A stretch of DNA of 64,000 nt, taken from the NCBI GenBank assembly GCA_050123155.1, contig JASFHP010000007.1, positions 32,032-96,031 on the forward strand, written 5' to 3'. This DNA comes from Candidatus Bathyarchaeota archaeon. Lineage in GTDB: Archaea > Thermoproteota > Bathyarchaeia > Bathyarchaeales > Bathyarchaeaceae. The notes under the pieces were generated by a model. That model searched no databases. It saw nothing but the letters and a program-made list of their open reading frames with translations, and had not been told where the DNA came from. Each line of letters starts with the position of its first letter. Position 1 is the stretch's first letter. The translations under genes and the position numbers were made by a program. Of the stretch, positions 1-59,655 are shown one piece after another.

Positions 1-34
1 GTTGAAGCGATTAAATGGAGAATGACGAGCACCC

Positions 35-31417: not shown

Positions 31418-31441
31418 CAAAACTCAACAAAAAATGAAGAG

Positions 31442-33871
31442 ATGAAAAAAATGAAAAAACTGTATTGTAAAACAAAACTTCTCACTATTGCATTAGTTCT
31501 AGCGTTAACTTTTGCTGCACTGACAGCGAGCATTTCATACGTTGTAGCTCAAGAAACTGCAACCCGTTGCTTTTTGTCTGTACAACCCAACCCTGTTGGA
31601 CGTGGACAAATTGTCACCGTTAGTGTGATGGTTCAACCTGTTCCTCCATCAATGAGTGACGTCTACCATGACGTGAAATTGGATATCACAAAACCTGACG
31701 GAACAATTGAAACAACTGTGAAGGACAGTTGGTCAACCGGAGGCTACTACATCCAATACATACCTGATATGGCTGGCATATACTACTTGCAGATGAGCTA
31801 TCCCGGCGAAACCTTTGCACAAAACCGAATTCGAAGTGCCAGTGAATCTCCTGTGACTGAGCTTGTTGTGCAAGAAGATCCAATACCAAGTTGGCCTGAA
31901 ACTCCACCTACTGGCGATTTCTGGGATCGTCCCGTAAGCGCTGACCTCAGAGAATGGGCTCATATTTCCGGAAACTGGTTACAGAGCGGCTATAACACTA
32001 CCTACCAAATGGGTCGAAGCCCTTCGGCTTATAATCCATACAGCACAGCACCGCGGTCTTCACATGTAGTGTGGACTGAGGAGTTGGGGTTAGGTGGTCT
32101 CGCCGGAGGAGAATTTGGTAGTGCATCATACTATGGAGGACTAGTATACGAAAACTATCTTAAGCCACCTATAGTCATGAACGGCCTGATTTATTACAAT
32201 CTGTACTTTGATTCGTCGCCTTTCAGTGCTTTCGTTTGTGTCGATTTGCGTACCGGAGAAGAGCTATGGCGTGTGGAGGGTGCAAATGTGGATGTCGGAC
32301 AGCTGTGGGATTACCGATCACCCAACCAATATGGAGTCATCCCGTTTCTGTGGGAGACCGGCTCTACCTATAATATGTATGATGCTTTCACAGGAAGATT
32401 CATATGCAATTTCACGGGCGCCTCGACAGGTCGTATTGTATTCGATGATGACGGGACAATGCTAGTGTACATGCTTAACGCACGAAGCGGTCAGGTGTCT
32501 ATGTGGAACTCAACCAAAGCCTTTGAAGAGAATGGTTTGATAAGCGGTTTCGGCGGCGTAGGGATGTTCAGATTCCGTACAGGGACGTATGATTGGCAGC
32601 GCGGAATCGAATGGGAGGTAACAACGGATATTGCGAGTATGACAGTAGGGGGCAGAACCTACTATCCAAATGCGTTCTCAGTTTCAGGCGATGTTATATT
32701 AGCTTCTGCAGGACTCGGATCAAGCCAAACAACATTACATGCTGGATATAGTGCAACGAACGGTTCATTATTGTGGTTTTATGCGCGCGACCCACCGGAT
32801 ATGCCACTTATCAGAACTGCTGTTGGAGACGGCGTCTTCGCCCTACACAACACGGTGAGTACAAGATTTCACGGTTACGATGTAGCTACAGGGGAGCCAC
32901 TATGGGAAAGTGATGAACTTGTGTATCCTTGGGGTACATACATTGGGCTTTCAATGCTGATTGCAGACGAGAAACTCCTCGCTGGTTCCTACGATGGATA
33001 CATGCACGCCTTTGACATTGACACAGGGAAGGAGTTGTGGAAGTACTCTAGCGGAGACGCTAACATCGAAACTGCTACGGGTACCTGGCCCTTCTTCTAT
33101 TCTTTCATGGCTGCTGACGGGGTGGTTTTTGCGCCCACCGGTGAACATTCTGCCTCACAGCCCTTGTACCGTGGGGCAAAGCTGCACGCAATCGACATGG
33201 AAACAGGAGAGGGTGTATGGAACCTGACAGGCTGGTATGTAAATGCTGCTCTTGTTGACGGTTACTTGCTGACACACAACGCCTACACCAATCAGATGTA
33301 TTGTATAGGAAAAGGACAAAGCGCCACGACAGTAACTGCACCCCAAACGGAAATAGAACTAGGAGAGAGCGTCATAATTAGAGGCACAGTCACTGACCAG
33401 AGTCCAGCGCTCAAGGACACACCAGCCATCTCAGATGAGTGCATGAGTGCATGGATGGAGTACAAGTTACTGCAGCATCCAATCCCTGAAGACGCAACAG
33501 GCGTTACAGTGAAGTTAACCGCTGTTTTCCCCAACGGTGAAACACAGGAGATAGGCACGGCTACAAGCGACATGTACGGCAACTTCGGAAAAAGCTGGAC
33601 TCCAGAAGTGGAAGGGGATTACCGGGTAATCGCCACTTTCGAGGGCACAGCATCGTACGGAAGCTCGTCAGACTCAACCTACCTGACAGTGGGTCCAGCA
33701 GCAGAAGAGGCTCCTAGCGCAGAAGAGATTGCTCAGACAACACTAACCCAGATGCCAGCATATCCAGAAATTCCCGCATACCTGCCAATAGACCTGATCA
33801 TACTGATAATCGCTGCCGTCGTCTTGGTCATAGGCTTACTGGCCTATGTGGCACTCAGAAAACAGAAATAA
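31442..33871 (+). CDS. Second PQQ-like beta-propeller surface protein
   Basis: Same architecture as 28741 (CVDLRTGEELW, AFDIDTGKELW); near-identical C-terminal anchor. Confidence 0.85.
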   Translation: MKKMKKLYCKTKLLTIALVLALTFAALTASISYVVAQETATRCFLSVQPNPVGRGQIVTVSVMVQPVPPSMSDVYHDVKLDITKPDGTIETTVKDSWSTGGYYIQYIPDMAGIYYLQMSYPGETFAQNRIRSASESPVTELVVQEDPIPSWPETPPTGDFWDRPVSADLREWAHISGNWLQSGYNTTYQMGRSPSAYNPYSTAPRSSHVVWTEELGLGGLAGGEFGSASYYGGLVYENYLKPPIVMNGLIYYNLYFDSSPFSAFVCVDLRTGEELWRVEGANVDVGQLWDYRSPNQYGVIPFLWETGSTYNMYDAFTGRFICNFTGASTGRIVFDDDGTMLVYMLNARSGQVSMWNSTKAFEENGLISGFGGVGMFRFRTGTYDWQRGIEWEVTTDIASMTVGGRTYYPNAFSVSGDVILASAGLGSSQTTLHAGYSATNGSLLWFYARDPPDMPLIRTAVGDGVFALHNTVSTRFHGYDVATGEPLWESDELVYPWGTYIGLSMLIADEKLLAGSYDGYMHAFDIDTGKELWKYSSGDANIETATGTWPFFYSFMAADGVVFAPTGEHSASQPLYRGAKLHAIDMETGEGVWNLTGWYVNAALVDGYLLTHNAYTNQMYCIGKGQSATTVTAPQTEIELGESVIIRGTVTDQSPALKDTPAISDECMSAWMEYKLLQHPIPEDATGVTVKLTAVFPNGETQEIGTATSDMYGNFGKSWTPEVEGDYRVIATFEGTASYGSSSDSTYLTVGPAAEEAPSAEEIAQTTLTQMPAYPEIPAYLPIDLIILIIAAVVLVIGLLAYVALRKQK

Positions 33872-43366: not shown

Positions 43367-44476
43367 TTGAGAATATTTGAGGAATTACTATTGATATTTC
43401 TCGGTGCTGGAGCTTCAACAATTTATGATTTGAAAACATTACAGGGTCTTACTAGAGACCTAATTAATAAAATGAATAGTGCTGGGCATGGAGACATAAT
43501 TAAGGAAATACGAATGGCACTCAAATACTTTGGTTTAACCCCTGATTTTGAAAATCTATACACTATCATTGAAGCATTGCAGAACTTCAAACAAGGTGTA
43601 AAAAATAGTGGACCATTAGCTAGTTATATTGCATACAAATGTAGAAATTCTGTTAGCATTAAGTCACACCCTGATTTCAAAGAAATTCTTAGAGACTTCA
43701 GAAGGATCATTTTTGAAGAATGTTCAATTTCTCCTGAAAAAATTGAAAATCAGCATGCGATTTATGATGAGCTTTTCCATCTAACTGATGTAATTAGTGA
43801 GTCTAGAATTCTTTCTTCAACAATAGGGGAGACTGGAAAAAATATTGGAATACCTGCGTCTCGAACAATAGTTACAACCAACTATGATATGTCCATTGAA
43901 TTACATTTCGCTAACGCATCAATACAGATTGCCGATGGATTCTCGATATTAGGTGATCAATACATTAAGCATTTTGATCCTAAAAATTTCCTGAAACATG
44001 GGAATCAATCGAATTGGTTAATTAAATTACATGGGAGTATCTGGCAATTTCTCTATAAAAATCAGTTCTGCAAATCCCTTCTCGATCCTGAATTGTTACC
44101 ACATAGAAGACTCAAAATCAAAGAAAGAATGATGATATATCCAATCGGTGAAAAACCAATTCTTAAAGAACCTTACTACACTTTTTTTAAAATTTTCAAA
44201 GAGCAACCATGGCAAGTACTAGTAGCGATAGGGCATTCCTTTAGAGATTTGCCCGTAAATATTGCGATTGTAGAAAATTTACGAAGAGTATCTCAGTCTA
44301 TATTGATTATCGTAAATAAAGAACCTGAAAAAGCGTTTAATAACCTTGGAATTCAGGATTCTATTGCCCAAAAAGTTATACGGGTTAATGGATTGTTTGG
44401 AGAAAAGGAAACTTTCAGAAAACTACGAATAGCTCTTCAGTCAAGGAGTTTCAAACAGTACCAAGGAAGAATTTGA
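43367..44476 (+). CDS. SIR2-like (SIR2_2) protein
   Basis: FLGAGAS, TTNYD, KLHGS, GHSFRD motifs; AT-rich. Confidence 0.85.
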   Translation: MRIFEELLLIFLGAGASTIYDLKTLQGLTRDLINKMNSAGHGDIIKEIRMALKYFGLTPDFENLYTIIEALQNFKQGVKNSGPLASYIAYKCRNSVSIKSHPDFKEILRDFRRIIFEECSISPEKIENQHAIYDELFHLTDVISESRILSSTIGETGKNIGIPASRTIVTTNYDMSIELHFANASIQIADGFSILGDQYIKHFDPKNFLKHGNQSNWLIKLHGSIWQFLYKNQFCKSLLDPELLPHRRLKIKERMMIYPIGEKPILKEPYYTFFKIFKEQPWQVLVAIGHSFRDLPVNIAIVENLRRVSQSILIIVNKEPEKAFNNLGIQDSIAQKVIRVNGLFGEKETFRKLRIALQSRSFKQYQGRI

Positions 44477-44613: not shown

Positions 44614-45267
44614 TTATGGTTTGGTTGCGGCTAGGAGTGCTACTTCGAGCCATTTCCAGAAGCAGTCAACGTCTTTGAATCCAATTTGCCTCAGCCATCC
44701 GAGTTGAGTCTCCACATCCAACAATATGTTTGCGGGGTCATCAGTTTCTGGAGATAAACCAACAGCAACCAGAAACCGTTGATGCAGCGCCTCAGTTGCC
44801 GAAGCCACATGCTCAAGATTAAGAAAAACGCCACCTGAAGCCAACAAACCAAAAATTTCCGCATACAACTGTCTCTTGCGTTCATGACTCACGTGATGGA
44901 TAGCAAGACCCGAAATAACCAAATCAAAAGGCATCCACCTGTCTTTTGGTAGCGGCACATCAAGGTTATGCTTCACAACCTCCACTGAACTGTCTTCCGC
45001 AAACCTTTCTCTAGCAAGCTTCAGCATGGGGTCTGAAAAGTCTAGGGCAACTCCTTTTGCCTCCAGGTTCTTTTGCTTAACCAGCGCAAGCATTCTTCCG
45101 TCTCCGGTACCTAAATCAAGTGCATAATTCACGTTTGACGGAATCTGCTCCAACAAAACCGCCCTAACCTCTTCCCCATGCGGTCTATCATCAGCAATCG
45201 CCAAATACCTATCCACACGCTCAGCAGACCCCCACCTGTTAACACCAGACGAATTGTCCCCACTCAT
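44614..45267 (-). CDS. Class I SAM-dependent methyltransferase
   Basis: LDLGTGDG, DFSDPML, AIHH, GGVFLNLE. Confidence 0.9.
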   Translation of the reverse strand: MSGDNSSGVNRWGSAERVDRYLAIADDRPHGEEVRAVLLEQIPSNVNYALDLGTGDGRMLALVKQKNLEAKGVALDFSDPMLKLARERFAEDSSVEVVKHNLDVPLPKDRWMPFDLVISGLAIHHVSHERKRQLYAEIFGLLASGGVFLNLEHVASATEALHQRFLVAVGLSPETDDPANILLDVETQLGWLRQIGFKDVDCFWKWLEVALLAATKP

Positions 45268-45580: not shown

Positions 45581-46561
45581 ATGGGAATCAGTTTGAAAAC
45601 TAAAATTCTTTGTCTATCTATTTTTCTGTTTTTAATTGTTGCAACTATGACTCCAGTTCATGGGGTTGGTCAGGGAGAGTGGATCGTGAATTATCGAGTG
45701 GAAGACTTGGAAACAGGAGAGCTCATTCTAGAAAGTGATTTTGAAACAGGAGAAATCAACGAATATGATTCGCTATTCATAGGATCAGAGTTACGTGTGA
45801 CAATCACGGTGAATGTAGTCATTACAGCCACCTACGCCAATTTGAAACTTACCACTAACTTGTCACCTTCAACCATCGAAGACAGATACTGGCAACTCGG
45901 ATCACAGGCTTACGAGTTTGTGGACTATAATCCTGCGCAGCACTATGTAGAGTTCCAGCAGGTTGCAGGAAATTTCACCATAATATGTTATGGAAGAATT
46001 CCTGTAGGGATTACTCAAGAAGGGATTGATGGGTATGTGCTACACAAAGCAGAGGAACTTACTCTAATCAAGTTAACCAGTCCCAGCGGCGAGCTTCTAG
46101 ATCACATCAAAAGTGATGTACTCGACGCTGAACTTGCTGAATACCGAAGCCTTCTCGAAAAAAGAGAAGACAAGTTGGAAACCCTTAAGGATTCGGGAAT
46201 TGCCCCGGGTTACATTGAAATTTATGGAGACGTTCTCGCACAAGCAGAAGCTCAAGCAGAGCTTGGATTCGTTGATGAAGCGATTGCTCTCTTAGACCTC
46301 CTTGTAGTCTCTCAAGAGCCTGTTTCGTCGACTGTTGAAGTTCTTTTCCTGCCAATAATGGCGGGTTTAGCGATTGCATTAGTTGCAGTAGGAGTCTTGT
46401 ACCTAAGAGCCAGAAGCAACAGGAACTATGTTTTATCCGTAATTGAAGATCAAATTAGGGATCTGGAAGGGGTAACGTTGAGAGCATCAAAGCTTGATAG
46501 AACTATTTCCTCAAGATTAGAGTCCATTAAAGAAAGACTGAAGAAACTGATCTGGGCGTAA
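45581..46561 (+). CDS. Single-pass membrane protein: signal peptide, extracellular beta + helical domain, TM, short cytoplasmic coiled coil
   Basis: Hydrophobic N-terminus from ATG 45581; TM LFLPIMAGLAIALVAVGVLYL; 6 bp from the next gene. Confidence 0.8.
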   Translation: MGISLKTKILCLSIFLFLIVATMTPVHGVGQGEWIVNYRVEDLETGELILESDFETGEINEYDSLFIGSELRVTITVNVVITATYANLKLTTNLSPSTIEDRYWQLGSQAYEFVDYNPAQHYVEFQQVAGNFTIICYGRIPVGITQEGIDGYVLHKAEELTLIKLTSPSGELLDHIKSDVLDAELAEYRSLLEKREDKLETLKDSGIAPGYIEIYGDVLAQAEAQAELGFVDEAIALLDLLVVSQEPVSSTVEVLFLPIMAGLAIALVAVGVLYLRARSNRNYVLSVIEDQIRDLEGVTLRASKLDRTISSRLESIKERLKKLIWA

Positions 46562-46567
46562 TTCAAA

Positions 46568-49249
46568 ATGAATCCATACCAAAATAGTGTGATGCTGATA
46601 GGGTTAGGTTCAGCAGGAACTAACATCGTAGAAGCTTTCATGAATCACAGAAAAACTAAGGAACTACTGAAGAGCGATATTACGCGAATTTCTCTTATGG
46701 CAGTTGACATAGCTGATCCAGAAATCAGGAAATTACAAGAAAGCACTGTGAAAATGACAGATGTTATGAAGAAGCATGGGATTCCAAGAGAAAGAATGAG
46801 GATAAATGCTCAATCAATAAAGTTTCCAACTGCCGAAGCAATGTTCGACTTCATCGACAAGAAATACAATGAGTATCTTCTGAGTGAAGGAGCCAAACTC
46901 AAAAACTTCAATCCATGGCTCCGCTCAACAAGAGCCATACCTCCCTTAGCTGGAGGCGCAGGCAGAAGAAGAGCACTAGCAAAGGCAGTATACGTTTTGA
47001 ACTACTACCAGCTTGGCATAATGAGAGGCTTAATAAATTCATTTAAAGAACAGGCTCTCTCATCGATAATCACTCCAACCGTCGTCTTGATATATGGATT
47101 AGGGGGAGGCACTGGAAGTGGACTATTCTGTGAGTTCACTAGACATCTAAGAAAAGTCTTGGGATCCAGTGTACCGATTATAGCTTTTGTAATCGCTCCA
47201 TGTGGCGGGGATGACCCGCCAGCAAAGGGAACCTCAGCCTTTACGGCTATGAACGAATTATCTCTATTGCTGAATAGAGATTACAATGAGTATATCAGCA
47301 AGTCGTATGGCGACATCTACCAAAACCCATTGAATGCCCTTGTTTGGTTGCCATTAAGACCTGCATACACAAATGTAGGCAACATCGTCACTGCCCGAAG
47401 AGACATGGATGAAATGATCGTTGATATGCTCTATGTTTTGATGGATTTCGATTTGGCTGACCTTTTGGGAGGAATAGGAACTGAGGTTGGACTCACAGAC
47501 AATTTCGTCCATACGTTAGGTATGCTCAAGATAATGTATTCGGTGGACGATTACATATTAGCCTTTAAGATATATTTCGAAAAACTTCAAGCATTATACG
47601 CGTTTAGAAAAGAGAAGCTTGAGATTTTTAAGGGAATCGAAAACATCATCAAAGTAAACCACGACATAACAAGGGAACTCTACAAGAAGTACCTGATAAA
47701 GTCGGGCACCTACGCTGAAGAGGAGTTTGACGAAAAAGTCAAGTCTATTATTTACGGAAATCCAATGCTTGAAGAAGACTATGAACTACATGTTAAATGT
47801 ATAGCGGAACAAGCAAAAAATTGGCTAAGCGATCTAATGAAGTTTCTATCAACCATCAGACTGAATACAGGCTGCGGACCACTAGAGCGGAAAATAACAA
47901 AATTGGTGCTCAGAAAAAAGAAATCCAGAAAAAAGGACAACCTAGAAACGTTGCTCACAGATCTTGCAAAAATACACCTCGACTTCTCTGCAAAGAAAGC
48001 TGCCATCTTTGAGCGCTTGAAGCAACTAATTCCCGGCTCACAAGTCTTCACCGTAAGGCAAAAGAAACTTTTAGAGGATTTAATGAATCTAACGGATCTT
48101 GTTGAAAACTCTCTCAAGATTCTCAAATTCTATGATGAAACTAGGATCTTTACTGAAGAAGTAATCAAATATTACGAGGGACTCCCAGACTCTGAGTCTG
48201 AATTGAAAGATTTGAAGAATATTCGAGCACAATTAGCAACTCTCTATTTAGTTGTCCAGTTAATGCTTAGAACACCATCCGATGAAGCAAAGATGATCGA
48301 TGATCACCTCAGCTACATAAATGAAGTCATGAACAAGATGATGGATAAACGTGGATCTATCGATAATGATCTTCTCATAGTACAGGAGGAAAAGCAGAGA
48401 AAAGAATTCGACAAATCAAAAATGGAGAAGCAGTTACGCAAGTTCTTAGGTTCAAAAAGATACGCCAGAGAACAGGTTAGAATGTATGAACGTGATCTAA
48501 CAAGAATATCGGAAGAAGAGGCTTACACCCTTGAAGAGCTTGAAAATCTTGAAAGTAACATCAAATTGTATGATCAGCTGGCTAAAAACCTTGAACTCAC
48601 TTCCGAATATCGTAAAAGATTGAACAAGATTGTTGATTTGTCTAAAGAATATGAAGAAATGCTCTCGCAGATAGTTGAACCCAAGAAATATTTTGAAAGA
48701 TCAACCGAACTCACTGAAGCAGAGCAAACGAAGATAATCTTCAAAATACTAGCCGAACAAGAAGACACGCTCTCCAGAGATGTAATAGTGAAAGAAATCA
48801 TTGACATGGAACACTTTACCGATTACATGAAGAGTATCATACGAGTTTTCAAAACACCAAGCATCATGGGATATAACCCAACCTATAAATCCGATTACAT
48901 TTGGGTAACTGTGGAGACCCCTCCGAAGCTATGGAATGAAGACCTAACACAAGAGCTGTACACTTCACTTGCAGGATACGTTACCAGCGAGGTGTCACGA
49001 ACAATAACTGTACGCGTAATCAATGCTCGGGACCCATGGACAACTCGAATCCTAGTTGTAGGTGGTAGAGGAAAGCCAGAAGACCTTGAAGCATTTGATG
49101 AAATGCAGCTCCTGTATAGTAAAGCTAACGATTTTGAGAAGAATTTCTCTCGTTCCTATCTCCTTGAGCATGGAGTTTCAGCAAAACAACTCGTTGACGA
49201 GATACGAAATAACAATCAGGAGAAGAAACAAAGCACCAGCGAGGATTAG
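46568..49249 (+). CDS. Tubulin/FtsZ-superfamily GTPase with a large coiled-coil insertion (FtsZ-like)
   Basis: LIGLGSAGTN, GAGRRR, GGGTGSG (47102..47122), T7-like DFDLAD (47444..47461), long E/K-rich helical region. Confidence 0.85.
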   Translation: MNPYQNSVMLIGLGSAGTNIVEAFMNHRKTKELLKSDITRISLMAVDIADPEIRKLQESTVKMTDVMKKHGIPRERMRINAQSIKFPTAEAMFDFIDKKYNEYLLSEGAKLKNFNPWLRSTRAIPPLAGGAGRRRALAKAVYVLNYYQLGIMRGLINSFKEQALSSIITPTVVLIYGLGGGTGSGLFCEFTRHLRKVLGSSVPIIAFVIAPCGGDDPPAKGTSAFTAMNELSLLLNRDYNEYISKSYGDIYQNPLNALVWLPLRPAYTNVGNIVTARRDMDEMIVDMLYVLMDFDLADLLGGIGTEVGLTDNFVHTLGMLKIMYSVDDYILAFKIYFEKLQALYAFRKEKLEIFKGIENIIKVNHDITRELYKKYLIKSGTYAEEEFDEKVKSIIYGNPMLEEDYELHVKCIAEQAKNWLSDLMKFLSTIRLNTGCGPLERKITKLVLRKKKSRKKDNLETLLTDLAKIHLDFSAKKAAIFERLKQLIPGSQVFTVRQKKLLEDLMNLTDLVENSLKILKFYDETRIFTEEVIKYYEGLPDSESELKDLKNIRAQLATLYLVVQLMLRTPSDEAKMIDDHLSYINEVMNKMMDKRGSIDNDLLIVQEEKQRKEFDKSKMEKQLRKFLGSKRYAREQVRMYERDLTRISEEEAYTLEELENLESNIKLYDQLAKNLELTSEYRKRLNKIVDLSKEYEEMLSQIVEPKKYFERSTELTEAEQTKIIFKILAEQEDTLSRDVIVKEIIDMEHFTDYMKSIIRVFKTPSIMGYNPTYKSDYIWVTVETPPKLWNEDLTQELYTSLAGYVTSEVSRTITVRVINARDPWTTRILVVGGRGKPEDLEAFDEMQLLYSKANDFEKNFSRSYLLEHGVSAKQLVDEIRNNNQEKKQSTSED

Positions 49250-49253
49250 CCCC

Positions 49254-50471
49254 TTAATCTTCTACTAAACTCTTAACGATTACTTGCCATTCTTCCGCAT
49301 TTATGAAGCCACGATCTATTGCGTCACCTTTTATCGCGTCTATATCTTTTTCCATCGAGGTGAACATCTCAGTTACATCGAAGCCTCCCACAAACATAAC
49401 AACATCTATTCTGTCACTGGTATCTTCTACGTATATGGGATCACTGAAGTAGATAGATTTGAGGCTGGCTTTGTCCTTAAACCAATTGACTATTGACAAC
49501 TCAATTTTTTCCCTTGGAAGTTTGGTCTTCAAGTGAGACGGAATGCGAAGGAGAACATAGAGCACCGATGCACTTGACAGGTCAAATGTTAAAAGAGGTC
49601 TGAGTAATGCGGCGGCGAGTACATTTTCTACTGAGCCATAAATTCTGAGGCTAGCCCCTGTGGCGGATAGAACCGTAAAAAGTTTGACACTGAAAGACCT
49701 CGACAATTCAGAGAGTTCCTGAACAAGTGTTTCTTTTGCCAAAAGTAACTCTAGCAGATAATTGAGGAACATGGTGCCCGTCATCTTGGTGCCTTTTCTG
49801 TTGGTTCCCACGTAATTTTCAAGATTTTCCCTGTTCATGAGTAAAACTGGTGTAGAATCCGTAGAGACGCTTATTCCAATGGACGAAAAGGCGTTAAAGT
49901 GAACATCTGGTGGCTGTAGTTTTGATGGCAAAACTGCTAATGATACCGAATTTATGTTCAATAGTTTCAACTGTGAACTTAATGAGGGCAATAGAGCACT
50001 GCCAACACCCTCCCATATAGAGGACACAATAATTGCTTGATGTACACTGTTTATGGGTTTGTTTTTTAGGCGAGCGATAAATGCGTCATTTTTTATGATG
50101 TTAGGGTAAACATGAAACCAAAAATATGTGTCAAGTTTTGTGTCTAGACCTAGAATGTTATATGGCTCAAGACGGGATTGGCTCCATTTTCTTATGTCCT
50201 TGCTTGATTTACCAACAAAGATGGGTAAAGCATCATCAGTTTTTTCTATGAAAGATCCTTTTAGAAGAATCTGGATGGGGTATTCACCGATACATATGAT
50301 GGCTTGCGAAGGGAACCATGGTTTTATTTGGTCAATGTGTTTTCTAATGCTCTCAACAACATCAAAATGATGCTGGTCTCTGCCAATAAGCAATTGGTCG
50401 ATGTGTTTTCCGATGCTTTCCATAACATCAAAATGGTGCTCACTGACCTCCATGAATACCCTCCACGACAA
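49254..50471 (-). CDS. Degenerate tubulin/FtsZ-like protein (putative pseudo-GTPase)
   Basis: IICIGEYP where IGxGGxG is expected; SSIWEGVGSA where GGGTGSG is expected; strand/helix order compatible with the fold. Confidence 0.55.
   Translation of the reverse strand: MSWRVFMEVSEHHFDVMESIGKHIDQLLIGRDQHHFDVVESIRKHIDQIKPWFPSQAIICIGEYPIQILLKGSFIEKTDDALPIFVGKSSKDIRKWSQSRLEPYNILGLDTKLDTYFWFHVYPNIIKNDAFIARLKNKPINSVHQAIIVSSIWEGVGSALLPSLSSQLKLLNINSVSLAVLPSKLQPPDVHFNAFSSIGISVSTDSTPVLLMNRENLENYVGTNRKGTKMTGTMFLNYLLELLLAKETLVQELSELSRSFSVKLFTVLSATGASLRIYGSVENVLAAALLRPLLTFDLSSASVLYVLLRIPSHLKTKLPREKIELSIVNWFKDKASLKSIYFSDPIYVEDTSDRIDVVMFVGGFDVTEMFTSMEKDIDAIKGDAIDRGFINAEEWQVIVKSLVED
50328..50440 (-). repeat. 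66-bp-period tandem duplication encoding HHFDVxESIxKHIDQ twice
   Basis: Copies at 50328..50374 and 50394..50440. Confidence 0.85.
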
Positions 50472-50516
50472 GCTTTAAGAACGGTTAAGCAAATTAAAGC
50501 TTTACATTGATTTGCC

Positions 50517-52934
50517 TTGAAATCTCTACGTGATTTGCCCATTTTTCATCTGCGAGAGTGGTACAGAACAAGAAAGCAACGAAAAAAAGAAGAGACGGAA
50601 CGTGCGCTTAAACAGAAATCGCTTAGGATATTGACGTTTGTAGTAACGCTAGTTGGCATGATGTTGGGGCTATCCTTGATCCCAATTTTTCCGCAGCCCT
50701 TACCACTGTTAATATCCTTTCTGATAGCTTTTGCTGCATTCATGAACCATGTGCGTAGTGGTATGACGGTGGGGTGCCTAATCCTTGGATTGGCAGTGGT
50801 ATACCACATGTCGCGGAATAATATTATATCGCAGATGAGTACGATGCCTTTAGCTCGTCTGGCCGTGATTGTTGCCATTCCAGCAGTGTTTTTCATCCTC
50901 CCGGCAATATTTCATCGCTATGAAGACGCTATCGCCATTAATCTAGGTATTATCGCAGCAACCCTTCTTTTCTTCAGTGAAGCCTATTATCTTGCCATAC
51001 CTTTAATCTTGGTTGTAGCGGCACTCTATAAAAAGACTAAATTGGGTCTCACTGTTTCATACTATGCCCTAATTTCATTACCACTTCAAATAATGTACTA
51101 TTTGAATTATGTTCTTGGTCTAAGTAATCCAGAATGGTGGGAAGACCCTGCTGCTGACCCATTTCTTTATGTTCCACTCACAGGGATTCTGAAAGGTATC
51201 CAAGAATCAATGAATCAACTCAGAATACTTGAGATAAACAAAATTCTGGAAACTATAGCAGGAGAGATCACATTCACAGCTCAGGACCACATATCGCAGA
51301 CTACGCAGATGGTTGTAAACAGATATTTCGATTCTCTTCCGGGCATAATTCTCTTTTTGGTCATAGTAGTTGGACTTGTTTCGGCTACTGCTTTATTAAC
51401 ACGAATGCTAGTAACGGAGGGTCATGCGACAAATTCGAAGTTGATCCTCCCCGCTTTAACATCGGCTAGCGCTACTGGGTTATTCTTTCTCTTCCTAATT
51501 GGTCTTCAAGAACCATTAGCTTTTAGGGCGCAAGTTGATCTTCTACAGATTTTAATCGGAGTTTCTGCAACTAGTTTAGTAACGGTAATTGCATCTTTGG
51601 TCAATTATGCGCCTAAGACAAGTTCAGAAATCGAAAAGCGCTCAAAAATGATAATTGAAAAGGCGCAAGAACTGTTGCAAGTGCGCCTACAAGTTATTGA
51701 ATGGTCACTGAACAAAGTGAAGAGCAGCATTTCCTTAGATGTTAGTTCTATTGAGGGAAGAACGTTGATAGTCAAAAGCAAACTTGATAATATTATCAGC
51801 AACGTTCAGGCCGAGTTATATGACCTATCTGAATTAAACGAGAAATTCGATGAAGTAGATAAGGACCTGAGAAATGAGATTGACAAACTAATGTCTGACC
51901 TAGAAGACTCAGTGGCACAATATCAAATATTCGTTTACAGTGAATACTCGTCATGGGTACGAAAACTTGAGGAAATTGGTTTAGCAGTTGGAACCACCGT
52001 AAAAACAGATTTTCAAAAAGAATTACCTCTGGAAATGAGGTTAGAGCTCATTAGGGAGATATTGGAATCAGGAAGGGCTCTTACCACCAAAGTCATACAG
52101 GTCGCCGAACAAAGTTATGACATTATCAGGTCCTTATACGATCCAAATCTTCCTGAGAAAAGCCTAGCCGTAACATTCGCTAAGAAAAAACTTGACGAAA
52201 CCACAGTTTCATGGACTGCTTTGAAAGCTCTTTTTGCTGCACTCCATAATTGGCAGAGGCAATACAGTGCCGAGATTTCCAAGTCTATGCACCGTCTTCA
52301 GAAATCACTGAATTCAATAGCTAATCTAAGCACTCAAAGTGAAAGATTGTTACCCGTCCTAGGCGATAATTTTCCGAAATTAATGGATCTCGTGAAAAGA
52401 GCTGAAGATGCCAGAGTTTACATGAAAAAAAAGACTCTGAACGTCATGAACATTCTAATCGTAAGAGAAGTACTCCAATCTTCATTAACAATTGCTAGAG
52501 ACGTATTTTTGATTGTTCAAGAAGAGTTAACGAGTAATGAGAAAGCAATCGAAAGTCTGCTACTCACGAAAGACTATTCATGGGAGAAAAACGTTGAGTG
52601 GAGGAAACAAATAACATCTGAAATGGAGATGGTAGTTAGCTCATCAAAGTATGGGCTGAGTAAAGTGATGGAAAATCTGCCCAAATCCCTATCCTATCTA
52701 GATGAGCTTGTGGATTCAATAGTGGCATACAATGAGAAAAAGGAAATTTTACTAAATTATCCGCTAGCAGAAATGGCCATTGAAGAGTTACTTAGGCAAA
52801 AGAAGCAGGTTTATGCCCAAGACCTACCATTCAACCTCAAGTATGCAGAAGAATATCTTAAACTGTTCTACAGCCAAAACTACCTCGAGTTTTCTTTTGA
52901 CAGAGAAAACAGGTCTCTCATGAAGAAAGCCTGA
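50517..52934 (+). CDS. Polytopic membrane protein (about 10 TM) with a ~440-aa C-terminal helical/coiled-coil domain
   Basis: Hydrophobic segments across roughly residues 35-360, then a charged helical tail. Confidence 0.8.
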   Translation: MKSLRDLPIFHLREWYRTRKQRKKEETERALKQKSLRILTFVVTLVGMMLGLSLIPIFPQPLPLLISFLIAFAAFMNHVRSGMTVGCLILGLAVVYHMSRNNIISQMSTMPLARLAVIVAIPAVFFILPAIFHRYEDAIAINLGIIAATLLFFSEAYYLAIPLILVVAALYKKTKLGLTVSYYALISLPLQIMYYLNYVLGLSNPEWWEDPAADPFLYVPLTGILKGIQESMNQLRILEINKILETIAGEITFTAQDHISQTTQMVVNRYFDSLPGIILFLVIVVGLVSATALLTRMLVTEGHATNSKLILPALTSASATGLFFLFLIGLQEPLAFRAQVDLLQILIGVSATSLVTVIASLVNYAPKTSSEIEKRSKMIIEKAQELLQVRLQVIEWSLNKVKSSISLDVSSIEGRTLIVKSKLDNIISNVQAELYDLSELNEKFDEVDKDLRNEIDKLMSDLEDSVAQYQIFVYSEYSSWVRKLEEIGLAVGTTVKTDFQKELPLEMRLELIREILESGRALTTKVIQVAEQSYDIIRSLYDPNLPEKSLAVTFAKKKLDETTVSWTALKALFAALHNWQRQYSAEISKSMHRLQKSLNSIANLSTQSERLLPVLGDNFPKLMDLVKRAEDARVYMKKKTLNVMNILIVREVLQSSLTIARDVFLIVQEELTSNEKAIESLLLTKDYSWEKNVEWRKQITSEMEMVVSSSKYGLSKVMENLPKSLSYLDELVDSIVAYNEKKEILLNYPLAEMAIEELLRQKKQVYAQDLPFNLKYAEEYLKLFYSQNYLEFSFDRENRSLMKKA

Positions 52935-53036
52935 AGGTGGCTTTCACACCCATCTACAGTTGACACAAAAATTGTGGAATCGTTCGTGTGCACTTTATTA
53001 AAGCTTATATCAAGTGAGGTTCAGTAGCTAGTTATC

Positions 53037-53972
53037 ATGAAAGCCGTGAAGCAGCAGACCGAAACAGAATTTTCAGAATCTGCCGTGAAAGCCTATCTAA
53101 TAGGTCTAGGTAGCGGTACGTTAGAGTTTATTGATGATACCATAAAGTTTCACGTAGAGAAAGGGCGCCTCAGAAAGCGGAAGAAACTTGTCAGAGAAAT
53201 ACCAATGGCTGACATAGAGGGAATGGACCTAGTTGGAAAAGAAATAAGCATTACCTGGAAAGGAACCACTGACATATTTGTTATAGAAGAGACGGAATCA
53301 GCTGAAACAATATTTAAGAGGATACCTAAGCCTTTTAGAGAACAAAAACAGGTGTTTGAAGATAAAGAAGTTGCAAAACAAAAAAGACACGAAATCAGTA
53401 GGACAGTTAGCATAACTATAGATATAGCTGATTCATTATTTGACATACTCAGAAGTTTACACGGATGGGTTGACTGGGATCGCGTTGAGGGTTTCTTGAA
53501 GAGTTCTGAGAAAAACGCGGCGAAACTAACCGATCAAAAGATGAAAACAATAGAATTGGATTTCACGAAGCTTTCATTAGCTATAAAGGAACACTTCCCA
53601 GAAGAAACCTCGAAAGAAGCCTATAATCTTTTGAAGTCGTTACATGGTTATTTTGATGGATTAGATTCAGAGAATGAGTTTCTTAAAGAAATTCATCCAA
53701 ACTATTACGATGCAAAAGCGACAATTCAAGCGCATTATCTGTTAAACGACATTGTATTAGGTACGCTAGTGGAAGATGAAGAAATTGGTAAAGAGCATAA
53801 CGAGCTTCTGATTACGCTAGAAGCCTTGTCAAAGGGAACAGGCTTAAAAATTAATATTGACGCCATCAAGAATGTTATCGCCAAATTAGGTGTCGATAAA
53901 GAAAAGGAAAAAGTTGTTAAGGAAAGTAGAGCGGTTTTCAGAAAGCAACTTGAAGATTTGACAAAAACCTGA
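53037..53972 (+). CDS. Protein with a PH-like N-terminal beta domain and helical C-terminus
   Basis: GTLEFIDDTIKF...REIPMADIEGMD...ISITW strand pattern typical of PH/GRAM-like folds. Confidence 0.55.
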   Translation: MKAVKQQTETEFSESAVKAYLIGLGSGTLEFIDDTIKFHVEKGRLRKRKKLVREIPMADIEGMDLVGKEISITWKGTTDIFVIEETESAETIFKRIPKPFREQKQVFEDKEVAKQKRHEISRTVSITIDIADSLFDILRSLHGWVDWDRVEGFLKSSEKNAAKLTDQKMKTIELDFTKLSLAIKEHFPEETSKEAYNLLKSLHGYFDGLDSENEFLKEIHPNYYDAKATIQAHYLLNDIVLGTLVEDEEIGKEHNELLITLEALSKGTGLKINIDAIKNVIAKLGVDKEKEKVVKESRAVFRKQLEDLTKT

Positions 53973-55731: not shown

Positions 55732-58700
55732 TTACTTTGTTAGGCATATCGGATTTTTGATGTAGTCTTGGTTTCTGAGTTTCTTTACTCTTATGGACTT
55801 TCTGCATTCTAGGGGGTCTTCGGTTTGGGTAACCTCTATTTCGCCGTCAAAGAGGTTTAGAACTGTTGTTGCTTGATCTGTAGGGTGTTCTTTCGGGTCC
55901 ATAACAGCCAGCAATGTGAAGCCTTTAGATCCGAGATCGGTGATCAGTCCTGAAATCCACTCTCTTGCAGTTTTTGTCCCATACGCTACGAGAACGTCAG
56001 AAAGAATCCCAACACATATTCGTCTCTTGGTTATCGATTGGTCTATAGTTCGGTAAGCTTTAGCCAATGCAATACCGAGGTTTGTCAGATCTGTTGTACT
56101 CCGAAGTTTGTACACATTTGGACGATCAGGAACATCAACCTTAGGTTTGGGGTTGCACAAGAACAGAATGAAGTTTGGTTTAGCTAAAAGATCTTCTAAA
56201 TCACCAGCTTCTTTTGTGATGTAGAAAGTGATATCTTCTTCATCAACTCCAGCCTTCAAGAAATTTTTCATCATCATCTCTCGTTCATCACATGGAGGAC
56301 CAGACAAAACAACAGCGTACTCGTTTGGAATACCACCCAAAAACAGAGAGTCAAGTTCTATTGTTCCAGTAGAAATTCGATCTTCTAGAATGACTTCTTC
56401 AACTCTAATCTCCAAGGTTTTAAGTTGAAGGAATTTGTTTTGCCCCAGCTCATCCAAATATTGAACTTTAGGATTAAGGCTATACTCTCCTTTCTTTGAT
56501 GGCTGAAGAGTCAACTTCACCTCCACCAGCTTCAATGGAGCAAGCTGCTTACCCTTCATATTCAATGTAGTGTCTTCTATTCGGTAAATCTCAGGCTTCT
56601 TAACAACAACAAAATCTGGAGGAACAAAATCATCAACCCGCATAAGTAAGGCAGGTTCTCTTCCAGCATTCACAAACTCAACGGATAAACAGAATGATTC
56701 TCCAACCTTAACTTGCTCAAGAGTAGTGACTAAGTTGGCTTGGACGTTTGCATGCTCAAAGCTTTCCAGACCCACAGACACTTCGCTGGTTGGAGATGGT
56801 GCAGAAAATGAAACAGTGCTCGAAGCAATAGTAGGTGCTTTCATCACTTGACTCAAAGAAACAGCTAATGCTTTTTCCTCTCTAACATTAGCCAAAATCC
56901 CTTGCACCTGAGCTGTTTTCTCAGGTTGCTTAGCCTTCATGAACGACCCTGCAGCGATCTGAAGCAGATTCTCAGCCATCTGATACTGCTTTGCTCGTTT
57001 CTCCTGATTTGCTTCACTTTCAGCTTGATTCATAAACAAATATGCATCAAAAAGACGTTGAGTAGCCTTGGCATATTCGGAGGCTGCTTTATATCCCGCC
57101 TTTGCATAGTGTGTAGAGGCACTCTTCATGAAACTCTTAGCCTTGGCATGTTCCTCTAATTCTAAATTTGCTTGATATCTAGCTCCCGCAGCCAGACCCT
57201 TACAGAAATTGCTATTACCCAATGCCCAAAGACTCGCTTTGCTAGTATAGCAATATTCTTTTGTCTTCTCAAAAAGTTCTGCAGCCTCAAGATATGACTC
57301 AGAAGAAGTTGTCTCTTCTGCATCTGCCATCTTCCCCCATGCTTGGCACAGAATCGCAATGTATTCTGATTCTTTGCGTTCAGCTTCAACATCTATACCT
57401 TCGGTTATCGACGCAATTTTCTGTGCTGCCTCTCCATACCTTCTTGAACTCTGAAGATAATTACCTTCTCTGTCTAAAATTCTAGCTTCTTCCATCAGAA
57501 TTCTAGCTTGACAATACTTTCGTCTAAGATCAGAAGCCTTGAACAGCTTCTGGGTCATTTCTTTTTCGTCAGAAGAACTGATTTCTTCAAGTTTCTGTTT
57601 GAAAGAATCTTCTGCCTTGCAGAACTGTTCATGTGCTTTTTGGAATATTTCTTTGGCTTGTTGAGGATTCTCTTTTCTGCTTAAGCCTTCTGCTTCTTCC
57701 ACATTAGCCCAGGCGAAATAGTTTGGAGCCAGATAACCCCATAGGCCAGATTTCTTGTGAAGTTCTGCAGATTTCTTATAATGTTCTTTGGCTTTATCGT
57801 AATCCTCCATGGAATGGGAGTGTCTTGCTTGTTCTATTTGACTCCAAGCCCGCATATACAAAGAATAGTCATCATAGAATTCTTTGAGTTGTGGGATTTT
57901 TTCAGCTGCAAGTTTGTAGTTTTCGGATGCTAACTGATAGTTGTGTGCGGATTCAAGGCTGTCGCCGAGGCGGTCGTAGACTGTAGCCATTTGCCAGTAT
58001 GCTTCTGCTACTCGACTTCGTGTATTTGCTATAGTGTAGCTTTCGACGGCGCTCTTGTAAACTTCAATGGATTTGCTAAGGACCGTTATGTCCTTGGTTA
58101 AGGTATACAGTTCACTTAATGGTGTACCGAACCTGTAACAGAACGCCCCGTAGAGGGTGCTCATCCATGTTAAGTGATGTAATTGATTATCTTTGGCAAC
58201 AAGCTTGATAGTGTTCTCTATGGGTGCCAAAGAACTGTTGAGCAGTTCAATTTTCTTCTCTTTTTTTTGCTCGGTTTTTGCAAGTTCCGCGTAGATAGAG
58301 ACTTGGTTACTCTGGTTAGAAATACGCTCCAAGTTGATGAAAGGTGTTTCTCGTTCTAGAATTGCGTTCTCTTTCATGCAGTACTCTAAAGACTCTTCTA
58401 ATAATCGCCGCTTTTTGCTATTTTTTGTTTCCACGATGGCTCGAGCAGATAAAGCTTGGTTCAAAGCCTTTATCGCGTTTACGGTACGTCGTTCTATGTG
58501 CCCGTCTGTGTATTTTACGCCTTCACGTCCCACTTCAACAGCTTTATCAAGAATTTCTCTCGCTGATCTGCTGTCAGTTGCATTCTGCGCCAATATTGTT
58601 AGACATACAACAATATGTTTGTAATTCTGAAACATGGGACCTCCATAGAAAGCAATTGTGTGGTAATGGTCGATTGACTCTTGCGCCAATTTAATAGCTG

Positions 58701-59655
58701 TCTGGAACCCCTCTCTTCTTTTTTCAGGGTCTTCCTCCAGCATATTCAAAGTCATAATCCCCATACCTAATCCACCGATTGCTGAGGCTAAAATGCCGCG
58801 GTCTTTTGTGATTTTGGCGTATTTCAATGCCTTTTTGGAATGTTCTGCTGCAAGTACACTGTTACCTGCAATAAGGGACTGAATCATGGATGCTGTTCCG
58901 TGCGCTCCCCCTTTTATCCCAGAATCTGCAATCTTTTCAGAAAGCATTAACCCTTTTTGCGAATACTCAATGCTTCTTAATTGTGCTTCCTTAATTCTGT
59001 CTTTCATTCCACCAATCCACCATACAGCGACGCTATAGTAGAGTGCAGTAGAGATGTAGGCATGAGCCAGCTCATAATCGTCACCCAAATCGGAAAATAT
59101 CTTGATGGATTTTTCTCCAAGATTCAGTAGCTCATTCATCATCCTCTTGATATCTTGGAAATCCGTCGGAAGCCAAAATCTGATTCCTGCTGAAAGTTGC
59201 AGCAGGTTATTACACGTCTTTCCGATGTTGATTAGGTCCCCGTCTTTCTCGTATTCTTCTAAAGCCTCATTTTCAAGTCTCCACCATTCATCTAACAACT
59301 TGCCCTTCTTTGCCCTGTCCCTTTCAAGCCTTGCGCTTACGTAAGCAACCAAAGCTTTTGCATGACTGATTTTTGCGCGATTTCCATTTTTTTCTACGCT
59401 CTGAAGAAGCTCAGCGCCTCTTTTGTAGGCTTTGACAGCCAACTCCATTCTATCTCTAAAGATATCATTTGTATCAGCTTGCATTGCGGCTTTGAAAAAG
59501 CAAAATCCTATCCGCTCCCGAAGTTCAGCAGCTTTCATAAAATCTTCTGATACTAAACTGGATGCTTGCTCGTAGAAGTCTACGGCATCAAGCCAGTCAT
59601 ACTTCTTCTCCAGTTCTTTTGCTTTCTCTAAAAGAGGCTCCAATTTTTTTGGCAA
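55732..59655 (-). CDS. 1307-aa TPR-like solenoid + Ig-like domain + degenerate KaiC/RAD55-like domain
   Basis: Helical A/Y-rich repeats; beta-sandwich segment; RISTG..LD....GGIP...VLSGPPCDERE with altered Walker A. Confidence 0.75.
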   Translation of the reverse strand: MPKKLEPLLEKAKELEKKYDWLDAVDFYEQASSLVSEDFMKAAELRERIGFCFFKAAMQADTNDIFRDRMELAVKAYKRGAELLQSVEKNGNRAKISHAKALVAYVSARLERDRAKKGKLLDEWWRLENEALEEYEKDGDLINIGKTCNNLLQLSAGIRFWLPTDFQDIKRMMNELLNLGEKSIKIFSDLGDDYELAHAYISTALYYSVAVWWIGGMKDRIKEAQLRSIEYSQKGLMLSEKIADSGIKGGAHGTASMIQSLIAGNSVLAAEHSKKALKYAKITKDRGILASAIGGLGMGIMTLNMLEEDPEKRREGFQTAIKLAQESIDHYHTIAFYGGPMFQNYKHIVVCLTILAQNATDSRSAREILDKAVEVGREGVKYTDGHIERRTVNAIKALNQALSARAIVETKNSKKRRLLEESLEYCMKENAILERETPFINLERISNQSNQVSIYAELAKTEQKKEKKIELLNSSLAPIENTIKLVAKDNQLHHLTWMSTLYGAFCYRFGTPLSELYTLTKDITVLSKSIEVYKSAVESYTIANTRSRVAEAYWQMATVYDRLGDSLESAHNYQLASENYKLAAEKIPQLKEFYDDYSLYMRAWSQIEQARHSHSMEDYDKAKEHYKKSAELHKKSGLWGYLAPNYFAWANVEEAEGLSRKENPQQAKEIFQKAHEQFCKAEDSFKQKLEEISSSDEKEMTQKLFKASDLRRKYCQARILMEEARILDREGNYLQSSRRYGEAAQKIASITEGIDVEAERKESEYIAILCQAWGKMADAEETTSSESYLEAAELFEKTKEYCYTSKASLWALGNSNFCKGLAAGARYQANLELEEHAKAKSFMKSASTHYAKAGYKAASEYAKATQRLFDAYLFMNQAESEANQEKRAKQYQMAENLLQIAAGSFMKAKQPEKTAQVQGILANVREEKALAVSLSQVMKAPTIASSTVSFSAPSPTSEVSVGLESFEHANVQANLVTTLEQVKVGESFCLSVEFVNAGREPALLMRVDDFVPPDFVVVKKPEIYRIEDTTLNMKGKQLAPLKLVEVKLTLQPSKKGEYSLNPKVQYLDELGQNKFLQLKTLEIRVEEVILEDRISTGTIELDSLFLGGIPNEYAVVLSGPPCDEREMMMKNFLKAGVDEEDITFYITKEAGDLEDLLAKPNFILFLCNPKPKVDVPDRPNVYKLRSTTDLTNLGIALAKAYRTIDQSITKRRICVGILSDVLVAYGTKTAREWISGLITDLGSKGFTLLAVMDPKEHPTDQATTVLNLFDGEIEVTQTEDPLECRKSIRVKKLRNQDYIKNPICLTK

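Follow-up and report, generated by a model that had tools for sequence, protein, structure and literature searches.

A conserved gene block of Bathyarchaeia that joins an FtsZl1-type GTPase to a degenerate tubulin-like protein and two membrane proteins

No branch of the tubulin superfamily is more divergent than that of the FtsZl1 proteins, which Pfam lists as Tubulin_2. The Pfam entry (PF13809) corresponds to the FtsZ-like family of Makarova and Koonin (Santana-Molina et al. 2023, PMC9871819), in which an FtsZ-like domain is followed by a coiled coil and a C-terminal domain (Makarova and Koonin 2010, PMC2875224). The bacterial FtsZl1 operons contain vWA, Ser/Thr kinase, diverged P-loop GTPase and OmpA-like genes, and the euryarchaeal ones have the order A2 (a small membrane protein), FtsZl1, a membrane-associated P-loop GTPase and A1 (PMC2875224). 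It was predicted in 2010 that FtsZl1 remodels membranes (PMC2875224). Bacterial Tubulin_2 genes have also been placed in predicted conflict systems, together with vWA and GAP1-type GTPases and sometimes as two tubulin genes (Kaur et al. 2020, PMC7159879), and according to the paper on Culexarchaeia, Bathyarchaeia have, besides canonical FtsZ, non-canonical FtsZ-like genes that are uncharacterised. Here we describe a gene block from a 64,000-nucleotide stretch of a Candidatus Bathyarchaeota archaeon genome (assembly GCA_050123155.1, contig JASFHP010000007.1, positions 32,032 to 96,031; "the window" below). In it, an FtsZl1-type GTPase (O2) is encoded next to a degenerate tubulin-like protein (O3), two membrane proteins (O1 and O4) and a soluble fifth protein (O5). 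The block is new as an arrangement, and our literature search found no paper describing it; the FtsZl1 kind itself is already known, though uncharacterised.

O1 to O4 form a fixed gene block, which O5 joins in some lineages. We examined 83 independently assembled loci, namely the best 80 of 203 relatives (one genome per GTDB species was scanned) and three long contigs. Searching these with tblastn, we find O2 in all 83, O3 in 81, O1 in 80 and O4 in 77; the order O1>O2>O3<O4> is constant, O1 lies directly upstream of O2 in 80 of the 83, and every missing gene falls at a contig end. The genes that flank the block vary from locus to locus. Median identity to the window proteins is 67% for O2, 50% for O3, 41% for O4 and 38% for O1. 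At least 203 GTDB species have an O2 relative. The databases hold more than 700 such relatives, the best 120 of which are all 67–95% identical to O2 and approximately 880–900 amino acids long. All of the best 80 loci come from Bathyarchaeia except two, whose contigs have evidently been mis-binned. A typical Bathyarchaeia block, with 65–93% identity, is seen in the loci L014 (DATGZD010000090.1) and L060 (DATHCJ010000009.1) and with protein P0131, on contigs labelled Candidatus Sulfotelmatobacter, Limnocylindrales and Promethearchaeota; these labels probably reflect contamination in the binning of metagenome-assembled genomes (MAGs). In loci where the spacing between O3 and O4 is 700–900 bp larger we considered an extra gene and rejected it: the extra DNA is a low-complexity N-terminal extension of O3 or O4. 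Two genes, an O5 homolog (L003:8049-8946) and an O1 homolog (L001:9372-9958), are each split over two reading frames, by frameshifts or assembly errors.

Only 11 of the 83 loci have O5 within 10 kb of the block; in each of these it is immediately adjacent, following O4 or preceding O1. A metagenome search with O5 alone, which used a narrow O5 alignment, gave 30 contigs, 21 of them with enough flanking DNA. On all 21, O5 lies directly beside O4 or O1 and the O1>O2>O3<O4> block is present. The earlier note, a reading of the window from its letters alone, had proposed a five-gene unit. The part that concerns O1 to O4 holds in every informative Bathyarchaeia locus, and O5 turns out to be facultative, so that the unit is better described as four core genes plus one.

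O2 is a member of the FtsZl1/Tubulin_2 family, judging from its sequence, with intact predicted nucleotide-binding loops and an FtsZ-like T7 motif. The Pfam domain Tubulin_2 matches residues 10–214 with 53.3 bits (cut-off 27; E = 3.5e-14), and PF00091 gives a weaker match (E = 2e-7). Its AlphaFold2 (AF2) model, built from an alignment of 70 sequences (25–87% identity), has a predicted local distance difference test score (pLDDT) of 90.3 and a predicted template modelling score of 0.78. The top 50 PDB structures retrieved with this model by Foldseek are all TubZ, CetZ, FtsZ, BtubA or tubulin, with probability 1.0. Among the family members, GGGTGSG is present in 84/84 and DFDLADL in 82/84. Over 70 sequences G12, G14, G17, G177, G179-181, G183 and D295 are invariant, and D298 is kept in at least 90%. 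We read DFDLADL, at the H7/H8 junction, as the parallel of NVDFADV in FtsZ. With Pfam, AF2 and Foldseek in agreement and the G-box and D295 invariant, O2 is likely to be an active GTPase. The earlier description of an 893-amino-acid GTPase-type protein carrying GGGTGSG (residues 179–185) is thus correct, while its placement outside the known FtsZ-like families is not, as Pfam assigns O2 to one of them.

O2 has two globular parts with helices between them. In the AF2 model a strand (residues 314–324) is followed by helices (326–703) and by a compact beta/alpha domain (704–893). A group of O2 relatives of 500–590 amino acids has the same N- and C-terminal parts and lacks the helical region. On one of these, a 568-amino-acid Rhodococcus plasmid protein, the O2 hidden Markov model (HMM) matches in two pieces, HMM positions 1–253 and 755–864, which are only about 110 residues apart in that protein. 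The two-piece match and the helix-less relatives show that the helical region is an insertion of approximately 380 residues between two conserved globular parts. The Foldseek alignments, with approximately 340 columns, are too short to contain this insertion and, judging from the column counts, probably cover the N-terminal domain only. The C-terminal domain is predicted to run beta 778–784, helix 791–804, beta 813–819, beta 825–835 and then helices. This beta-alpha-beta-beta order and the "VVGG"-type strands raise the hypothesis that it completes the tubulin fold. Its profile found no FtsZ or tubulin match in PDB, and hhalign of the C-terminal domain against the C-terminal part of O3 matched 6 residues only.

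When 1.84 billion representative proteins were searched exhaustively with residues 1–350 of O2, only 105 matches came back, among them about 16 full-length relatives (858–916 amino acids), the 500–590-amino-acid group and classical FtsZl1 proteins (1064–1155 amino acids), which match the O2 N-terminal domain only at E-values of 1e-16 to 1e-4. Used as a query, the most distant full-length relative, P0256, retrieves proteins from MAGs with the labels Nitrososphaerales and Dehalococcoidia/Chloroflexi, the latter in four separate records; for some distant loci the only basis of the bacterial assignment is the database label. In these distant loci the operons are differently arranged. L084 and L085 have an O1-like gene, O2, an O4-like gene, a gene of approximately 320 amino acids and a second tubulin gene (PF00091); L119 has O2, O4, a tubulin and a 303-amino-acid protein; L086 and L120 have O1, O2, O4 and a zinc-ribbon protein. 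HMMs built from the Bathyarchaeia families only recognise these genes. The O1 HMM finds the gene upstream of O2 in L084 to L087 and L120 (E = 1e-17 to 1e-35), and the O4 HMM the gene downstream of O2 in L084 to L087, L119 and L120 (E = 2e-23 to 7e-4). The second tubulin is matched by the O3 HMM in L084 (1e-28), L119 (4e-20) and L085 (2e-16), and the O5 HMM hits genes inside the operon in L119 (8e-15) and L084 (5e-6). By these matches the order of the families is O1>O2>O4>O5>O3 in L084 and O2>O4>O3>O5 in L119, and the O3 homologs lie inside the operon and on the same strand in L084, L085 and L119. All five families therefore travel together. Co-occurrence outside the window, on which the earlier idea of a joint system depended, is seen at both distances: O1 to O4 stay together across Bathyarchaeia loci, and all five families recur, reshuffled, in the distant operons.

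A few features of the distant loci deserve mention. In L119, fn3 and SlaA-like surface proteins adjoin the operon. In L087 (2983-5835), an archaeal locus, the genes directly upstream of the O1-like gene encode an FHA-domain protein and a Ser/Thr protein kinase, which brings to mind Halorhabdus, where FtsZl1 is associated with a kinase. Plasmid pRHL2 of Rhodococcus jostii RHA1 (L121, NC_008270.1 163335-166915) carries two coiled-coil-less Tubulin_2 paralogs of 514 and 568 amino acids, both with a GGTGSG loop, split by a 99-amino-acid ORF (open reading frame); a nickel transporter and an aliphatic amidase are encoded next to them. The same pair is carried by 12 plasmids of Rhodococcus and by plasmids of Agrobacterium and Brucella; it represents a paired tubulin-like system in a metabolic context. 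We considered a mobile-element origin of the block and rejected it: there are no phage matches, and the plasmid matches belong to this different, coiled-coil-less subgroup.

O3 belongs to the tubulin/FtsZ superfamily, as homology at the family level indicates. The window O3 by itself matches nothing, in Pfam or otherwise, while 30 of 47 members of its family match PF00091 (best E = 2e-5). Against PDB, the family profile finds the Asgard tubulin AtubB2 best (E = 0.0022) and CetZ at 0.12, at the T4-H5 region. The L084 homolog matches FtsZ (4e-7), BtubB and the CetZ structures 4b45 (9e-5) and 3zid (0.0016). The AF2 model of O3, from 47 sequences with 62–100% identity, is poor (pLDDT 46); with this low-confidence model the top 11 Foldseek matches are all tubulin, FtsZ, TubZ or CetZ (probability 0.87–1.0, TM-score 0.3–0.4). 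The tubulin-like nature that the earlier note gave O3 is supported by the PF00091 matches of its family, the profile match to AtubB2, the HMM link to the tubulins of L084 and L119 and the FtsZ match of the L084 protein. O3 has no transmembrane (TM) segment by hydropathy. The distant O3 homologs (L084:16073-17455, L085, L086:14894-15940, L119:7551-8834 and L120:12492-14072) have an N-terminal CxxxH...CxxC zinc ribbon instead of the tandem repeat of the window protein.

The nucleotide signature of O3 is replaced. At the T4 position 74 sequences read W(D/E/N)G(V/I/L)G(S)(A/G), in the context S-S-x-W-(D/E)-G-(V/I)-G-S-A; tryptophan stands at the first glycine position in 70 of them and aspartate or glutamate at the second, also in 70. 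GGGTGSG occurs in none of these 74 Bathyarchaeia sequences. The T1 position reads C-I-G-E-Y-P and is conserved across the same 74. Overall, the replacing residues are kept in 70–73 of the 74, which points to a fixed, selected state and not to decay. Among the distant homologs, L084 and L119 have GGGTGSG and L085 has GGGIGSA. Position 252 is glutamate or aspartate in 74/74 sequences and position 255 in 71/74, at the start of the helix predicted to be equivalent to H8. E252 and E255 would thus sit where FtsZ has its catalytic T7/H8 aspartates. At the level of motifs, then, the active/inactive pair that the earlier note had suggested stands, with GGGTGSG intact in O2 and the signature replaced in O3.

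The two membrane proteins are less conserved in sequence and match no known family. By hydropathy O1 consists of a signal-like N-terminus (residues 1–28), an extracellular part of approximately 225 amino acids, one TM segment (residues 254–272) and a cytoplasmic amphipathic tail of approximately 54 amino acids, in keeping with its earlier description as a single-pass surface protein. In a 15-sequence alignment this tail, "VEDQIKDLEGLTLRASKIDR..LES.KDRLKRL", is the best-conserved segment. Searches of O1 against Pfam, NCBIfam, PADLOC and PDB gave no match. O4 has about 9–11 hydrophobic spans within residues 33–365, with a loop of approximately 70 amino acids at residues 195–268 (from the single sequence and the family average), and then an E/K/L-rich tail, which agrees with the roughly ten TM segments and long helical tail noticed before. 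The same four databases gave no match for O4 beyond generic amphipathic helices; in PDB its tail resembles apolipoprotein A-I (E = 0.007) and lamin (E = 0.02) in this generic way. From the TM predictions and the conserved O1 tail, O1 and O4 are candidate membrane anchors, with CdpA as a precedent (see below). O5 has an N-terminal beta-rich module of approximately 95 amino acids and a helical C-terminal part, as seen in the alignment. A Pfam scan of nine members found no match, and the top PDB match of the profile, the PH domain of centaurin-delta 1 (residues 45–107), has a non-significant E-value of 0.5, so the label "PH-like" in the earlier note is still a guess. O4 and O5 represent new families as far as sequence comparison can tell.

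Table 1. Features of the block, in window coordinates (res, residues; nt, nucleotides).
Feature	Position	Strand	Description	Basis
O1	45581..46561	+	type-I membrane protein, 326 aa	ORF listing, hydropathy, alignment
O2	46568..49249	+	893 aa, tubulin/FtsZ-type GTPase with helical insertion	ORF listing, Pfam, AF2
O2 N-terminal GTPase domain	46568..47542	+	res 1-325	Pfam, AF2, Foldseek
O2 T1-like GLGSAGTN	res 12-19	+		motif
O2 T4 GGGTGSG	res 179-185, nt 47102-47122	+		motif
O2 T7-like DFDLADL	res 293-299, nt 47444-47464	+		motif
O2 helical insertion	47543..48676	+	res 326-703, seven long helices (24-56 residues), E/K/L-rich	AF2, composition
O2 C-terminal globular domain	48677..49249	+	res 704-893, conserved "S.LLEHG" motif	AF2, alignment with coiled-coil-less homologs
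O3	49254..50471	-	405-aa ORF, degenerate tubulin/FtsZ-superfamily protein	ORF listing, family-level homology
O3 acidic pair E252/E255	nt 49707-49718	-		motif
O3 T4 position WEGVGSA	res 153-159, nt 49995-50015	-		motif
O3 N-terminal tandem repeat HHFDV(M/V)ESI(G/R)KHIDQ	50320-50440, res 12 and 34 (res 12-50)	-		sequence
O3-O4 divergent intergenic region	50472..50516	.	45 bp, AT-rich; CTTTAAG and AAATTAAAG boxes	sequence read
O4	50517..52934	+	805 aa, ~10 TM and helical tail	ORF listing, hydropathy
O4 membrane domain	50517..51611	+	res 1-365	hydropathy
O4 cytoplasmic helical tail	51612..52934	+	res 366-805, ~440 residues, E/K/L/S-rich	composition
O5	53037..53972	+	311 aa, soluble, facultative fifth component	ORF listing, alignment

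The coordinates of the block are collected in Table 1. Our ORF listing reproduces the five reading frames of the earlier note in the order > > < > >; from their coordinates the gaps are 6 bp (O1-O2), 4 bp (O2-O3), 45 bp (O3-O4) and 102 bp (O4-O5). A longer O1 ORF opens at 45512, and the alignment places the start of the orthologs at the ATG at 45581. The probable start of O3 is Met7 (nucleotide 50453), where most orthologs start; this gives 399 amino acids, the usual ortholog length, and widens the O3-O4 spacing to 63 bp. A sigma-70 promoter scan found fewer sites than in shuffled sequence, with a model that is irrelevant for an archaeon. O2 and O3 are convergent at 49249-49254, with 4 bp between their stop codons, and we found no terminator-like hairpin at this site. 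With the stops this close, transcripts would run into the opposing gene unless terminated very tightly.

The window is archaeal in content, with a thermosome gene, a TrmB regulator and one tRNA, and its closest relatives are Bathyarchaeia metagenome contigs. A SIR2_2-domain gene (43367-44476, plus strand), 1.1 kb upstream of the block, has many matches to SIR2/Aga_SIR2 in PADLOC (best E = 3e-15), and the neighbouring ORF on the minus strand (44614-45267) looks like a methyltransferase by its sequence. Neither gene is found near the block in any of the 83 related loci, so the two look like a separate small defence-like insertion. Downstream, two paralogs on the minus strand (55732-59655 and 61103-63883; 1307 and 926 amino acids) have TPR-like repeats and a C-terminal KaiC-like/DUF7504 ATPase domain; C-terminal domains of this type also occur near the block in L062 and L073. 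At 28741-31224 and 31379-33871 (plus strand), tandem proteins of approximately 830 amino acids combine a PQQ-type beta-propeller with Ig-like domains (Big_3_5/Filamin) and are probably surface proteins.

What might the block do? We lean towards regarding it as one membrane-tethered machine of the tubulin superfamily, a vertically inherited housekeeping feature of Bathyarchaeia. From the gene linkage, family membership and motif states observed above we infer the contacts and activities that follow. O2 would be the polymerising subunit driven by GTP, which it would bind and hydrolyse where subunits meet head to tail in a filament or, at the minimum, an oligomer. O3 would be unable to bind nucleotide. 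As it keeps an acidic pair where the catalytic T7/H8 residues of FtsZ lie, its place would be on the nucleotide-binding face of O2, with the role of a permanent partner, a cap or an activator; labour would then be divided much as in alpha/beta-tubulin. The assembly would be held at the membrane by the tails of O1 (conserved and cytoplasmic) and O4 (long and helical), possibly through the helical insertion of O2, while the O1 ectodomain would link it to the cell surface and O5 would act as an accessory adaptor. Most likely the assembly would shape or remodel the membrane or envelope locally (in cell shape, as a division accessory or in vesicle formation) and would not serve immunity. The earlier note had spoken of a trans-envelope cytoskeletal or membrane-remodelling machine; such a function is likewise conjectural.

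It is tempting to go further and hypothesize that Bathyarchaeia and, by transfer, some lineages labelled Dehalococcoidia or Nitrososphaerales possess an obligate two-subunit tubulin-like polymer. It would be made of an active FtsZl1-type GTPase and a nucleotide-free subunit that has kept nothing but the activating acidic residues of the T7 type; the labour division of alpha/beta-tubulin would then have been invented a second time, independently. The tubulin core would be split by a helical arm of some 380 residues that plugs into a trans-membrane complex of O1 and O4, and the whole would be a housekeeping archaeal cytoskeleton of an unseen kind. We put this forward tentatively and think it less likely than not.

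Several observations weigh against a single housekeeping machine. The T7 register of O3 comes from an alignment by eye and from predicted secondary structure, next to a model with a pLDDT of only 46. The hhalign comparison of the O2 and O3 profiles is weak, with an E-value of approximately 0.1 at the T4 region, which makes the two distant paralogs and not a close, recent duplicate pair. O3 lies on the opposite strand in Bathyarchaeia. The neighbourhoods of bacterial FtsZl1 have been reinterpreted as conflict systems (PMC7159879), a SIR2-like gene stands just upstream of the block in the window, and our literature search found no experiment on the block or on any FtsZl1 system.

Other explanations can be weighed against the same evidence. 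One is an assembly platform for the envelope or a surface structure: the tubulin-like pair would position or power an O4 complex that inserts, secretes or organises a surface component, including the O1 ectodomain, without bending the membrane. The signal peptide and the extracellular domain of O1, the large polytopic O4 with its external loop and the surface proteins that adjoin the L119 operon fit such a platform, and other organisms rely on FtsZ and CetZ to direct envelope synthesis or shape. O4, on the other hand, matches no transporter, glycosyltransferase or secretion family, and the surface-protein neighbours are not conserved; we consider the platform rather unlikely. The earlier note also allowed for a conflict system. 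In a defence system of the GTPase/tubulin type (Kaur et al. 2020), the tubulin-like assembly would be a threshold or an effector when infection occurs, with O1 and O4 as membrane sensors or effectors; the bacterial Tubulin_2 contexts cited above and the SIR2_2 gene with its PADLOC matches speak for it. The block itself has a fixed composition, is highly conserved over at least 203 species and sits among changing housekeeping neighbours, the opposite of patchy defence islands. O1 to O5 match none of the families of PADLOC-DB v2 at E ≤ 1, only the upstream SIR2 gene does, and that gene is unlinked in the related loci; we recognise no effector domain in the block, and no phage homologs were found. 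For these reasons, the conservation pattern among them, defence is disfavoured and in our view improbable, and a housekeeping role as a membrane-tethered cytoskeletal or remodelling system is likelier.

TubZ is the best structural match of both the O2 model (E = 1.2e-6) and the O3 model, and the zinc ribbon of the distant O3 homologs could bind nucleic acid, so one may ask whether the block is a membrane-anchored system of the TubZ type for DNA or plasmid segregation. The block has no TubR-like DNA-binding gene and no helix-turn-helix (HTH) domain by Pfam, Bathyarchaeia O3 is without the zinc ribbon, and the locus is chromosomal, single and conserved; the plasmid-borne relatives in Tubulin_2 are the different, coiled-coil-less group in a metabolic context. 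We give segregation very little weight. It is also conceivable that the genes, though conserved as neighbours, have no function in common, and in particular that O3 is unrelated to O1, O2 and O4. Its divergent orientation to O4 and convergent orientation to O2, together with the weak O2-O3 profile similarity, would then find a simple explanation, and yet O3 co-occurs in 81 of 83 loci, the gaps around it are only 4 and 45 bp, and its homologs in L084, L085 and L119 are on the same strand within the operon. This last idea we find hardly credible. The membrane-tethered machine thus remains the reading that we favour.

Bathyarchaeia are among the most abundant archaea of anoxic sediments. To our knowledge they have no genetically tractable cultured representative, and their cell biology is almost unknown. 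The block is a compact and unusually well-conserved version of the FtsZl1 system. Of its roughly five proteins, one has been modelled at high confidence. It provides an active and a degenerate partner as a natural pair, as well as clear candidates for membrane anchors, and makes the prediction of membrane remodelling from 2010 directly testable. The partner series GGGTGSG, GGGIGSA and W(D/E)G(V/I)GSA across related operons provides a case for the evolution of heteromeric tubulin-like pairs. The block is of solid interest both to archaeal cell biology and to the evolution of such pairs.

How does the block compare with known systems? It matches no FtsZl1 operon listed in PMC2875224, so the earlier impression that it differs from known operons of FtsZ-like genes holds. 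The accompanying background, which had also put FtsZl2 in operons with coiled-coil and membrane proteins, was partly wrong, since FtsZl2 genes have no conserved neighbours (PMC2875224). Like FtsZl1, O2 scores above the PF13809 cut-off, has GGGTGSG and has central helices followed by a C-terminal globular domain, and membrane proteins are encoded in the operon. The classical FtsZl1 proteins have 1040–1155 amino acids, and only the N-terminal domain of O2 is matched by them. O1 occupies the place of A2 directly upstream, as in the euryarchaeal operons, a resemblance in position and size only. Unlike the bacterial operons, the block has no vWA, Ser/Thr kinase, OmpA or P-loop GTPase among the Pfam matches of O1, O3, O4, O5 and the conserved neighbours; the absence of vWA and kinase partners had been noticed before, and among our loci only L087, with its FHA protein and kinase upstream, shows such a kinase link. 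The gene after O2 is O3, a tubulin-like protein without TM segments, and not the membrane P-loop GTPase of the euryarchaeal operons, and O4 and O5 appear in none of the FtsZl1 neighbourhoods listed in PMC2875224. O2 has a recognisable T7-like motif; for FtsZl1, the analysis of 2010 had been unable to identify T6-H7. The C-terminal domain of FtsZl1 was then described as "mostly alpha-helical" (by PSIPRED, for a different subfamily), and that of O2 has three or four beta strands and helices by AF2.

The likeness to TubZ noted above goes with TM-scores of only 0.4–0.46 on the target. In contrast to TubZRC, no HTH/DNA-binding Pfam domain of the TubR kind was found in the block, and no search was aimed at centromere repeats. 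The relatives of O3 match CetZ structures (4b45, 3zid); CetZ, however, keeps the GTP signature that Bathyarchaeia O3 lacks, and CetZ genes are not reported with this operon. "CetZ-like" proteins have been described in Chloroflexota-Dehalococcoidia (Santana-Molina et al. 2023, PMC9871819), and the Dehalococcoidia-labelled O3 homologs may be this group. In haloarchaea (Haloferax) the membrane protein CdpA anchors FtsZ rings (PMC12126565). The parallel with SepF and CdpA, in which a membrane protein tethers filaments of a tubulin homolog, is conceptual only: we detected no sequence similarity of O1 or O4 to any known protein, and their partnership with O2 and O3 is suggested by gene linkage alone. 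There is a parallel in organisation with alpha/beta-tubulin, BtubA/B and AtubA/B, where, as here, two paralogous proteins of the tubulin superfamily with unequal nucleotide chemistry (judged here from motifs) are encoded together. The differences are considerable. The relation between O2 and O3 is very remote, as is that of either to tubulins, and O3 seems to have lost nucleotide binding altogether, in place of the non-exchangeable GTP of the tubulin heterodimers. O2, in turn, carries its large insertion of approximately 380 residues, and the system comes with candidate membrane anchors of its own.

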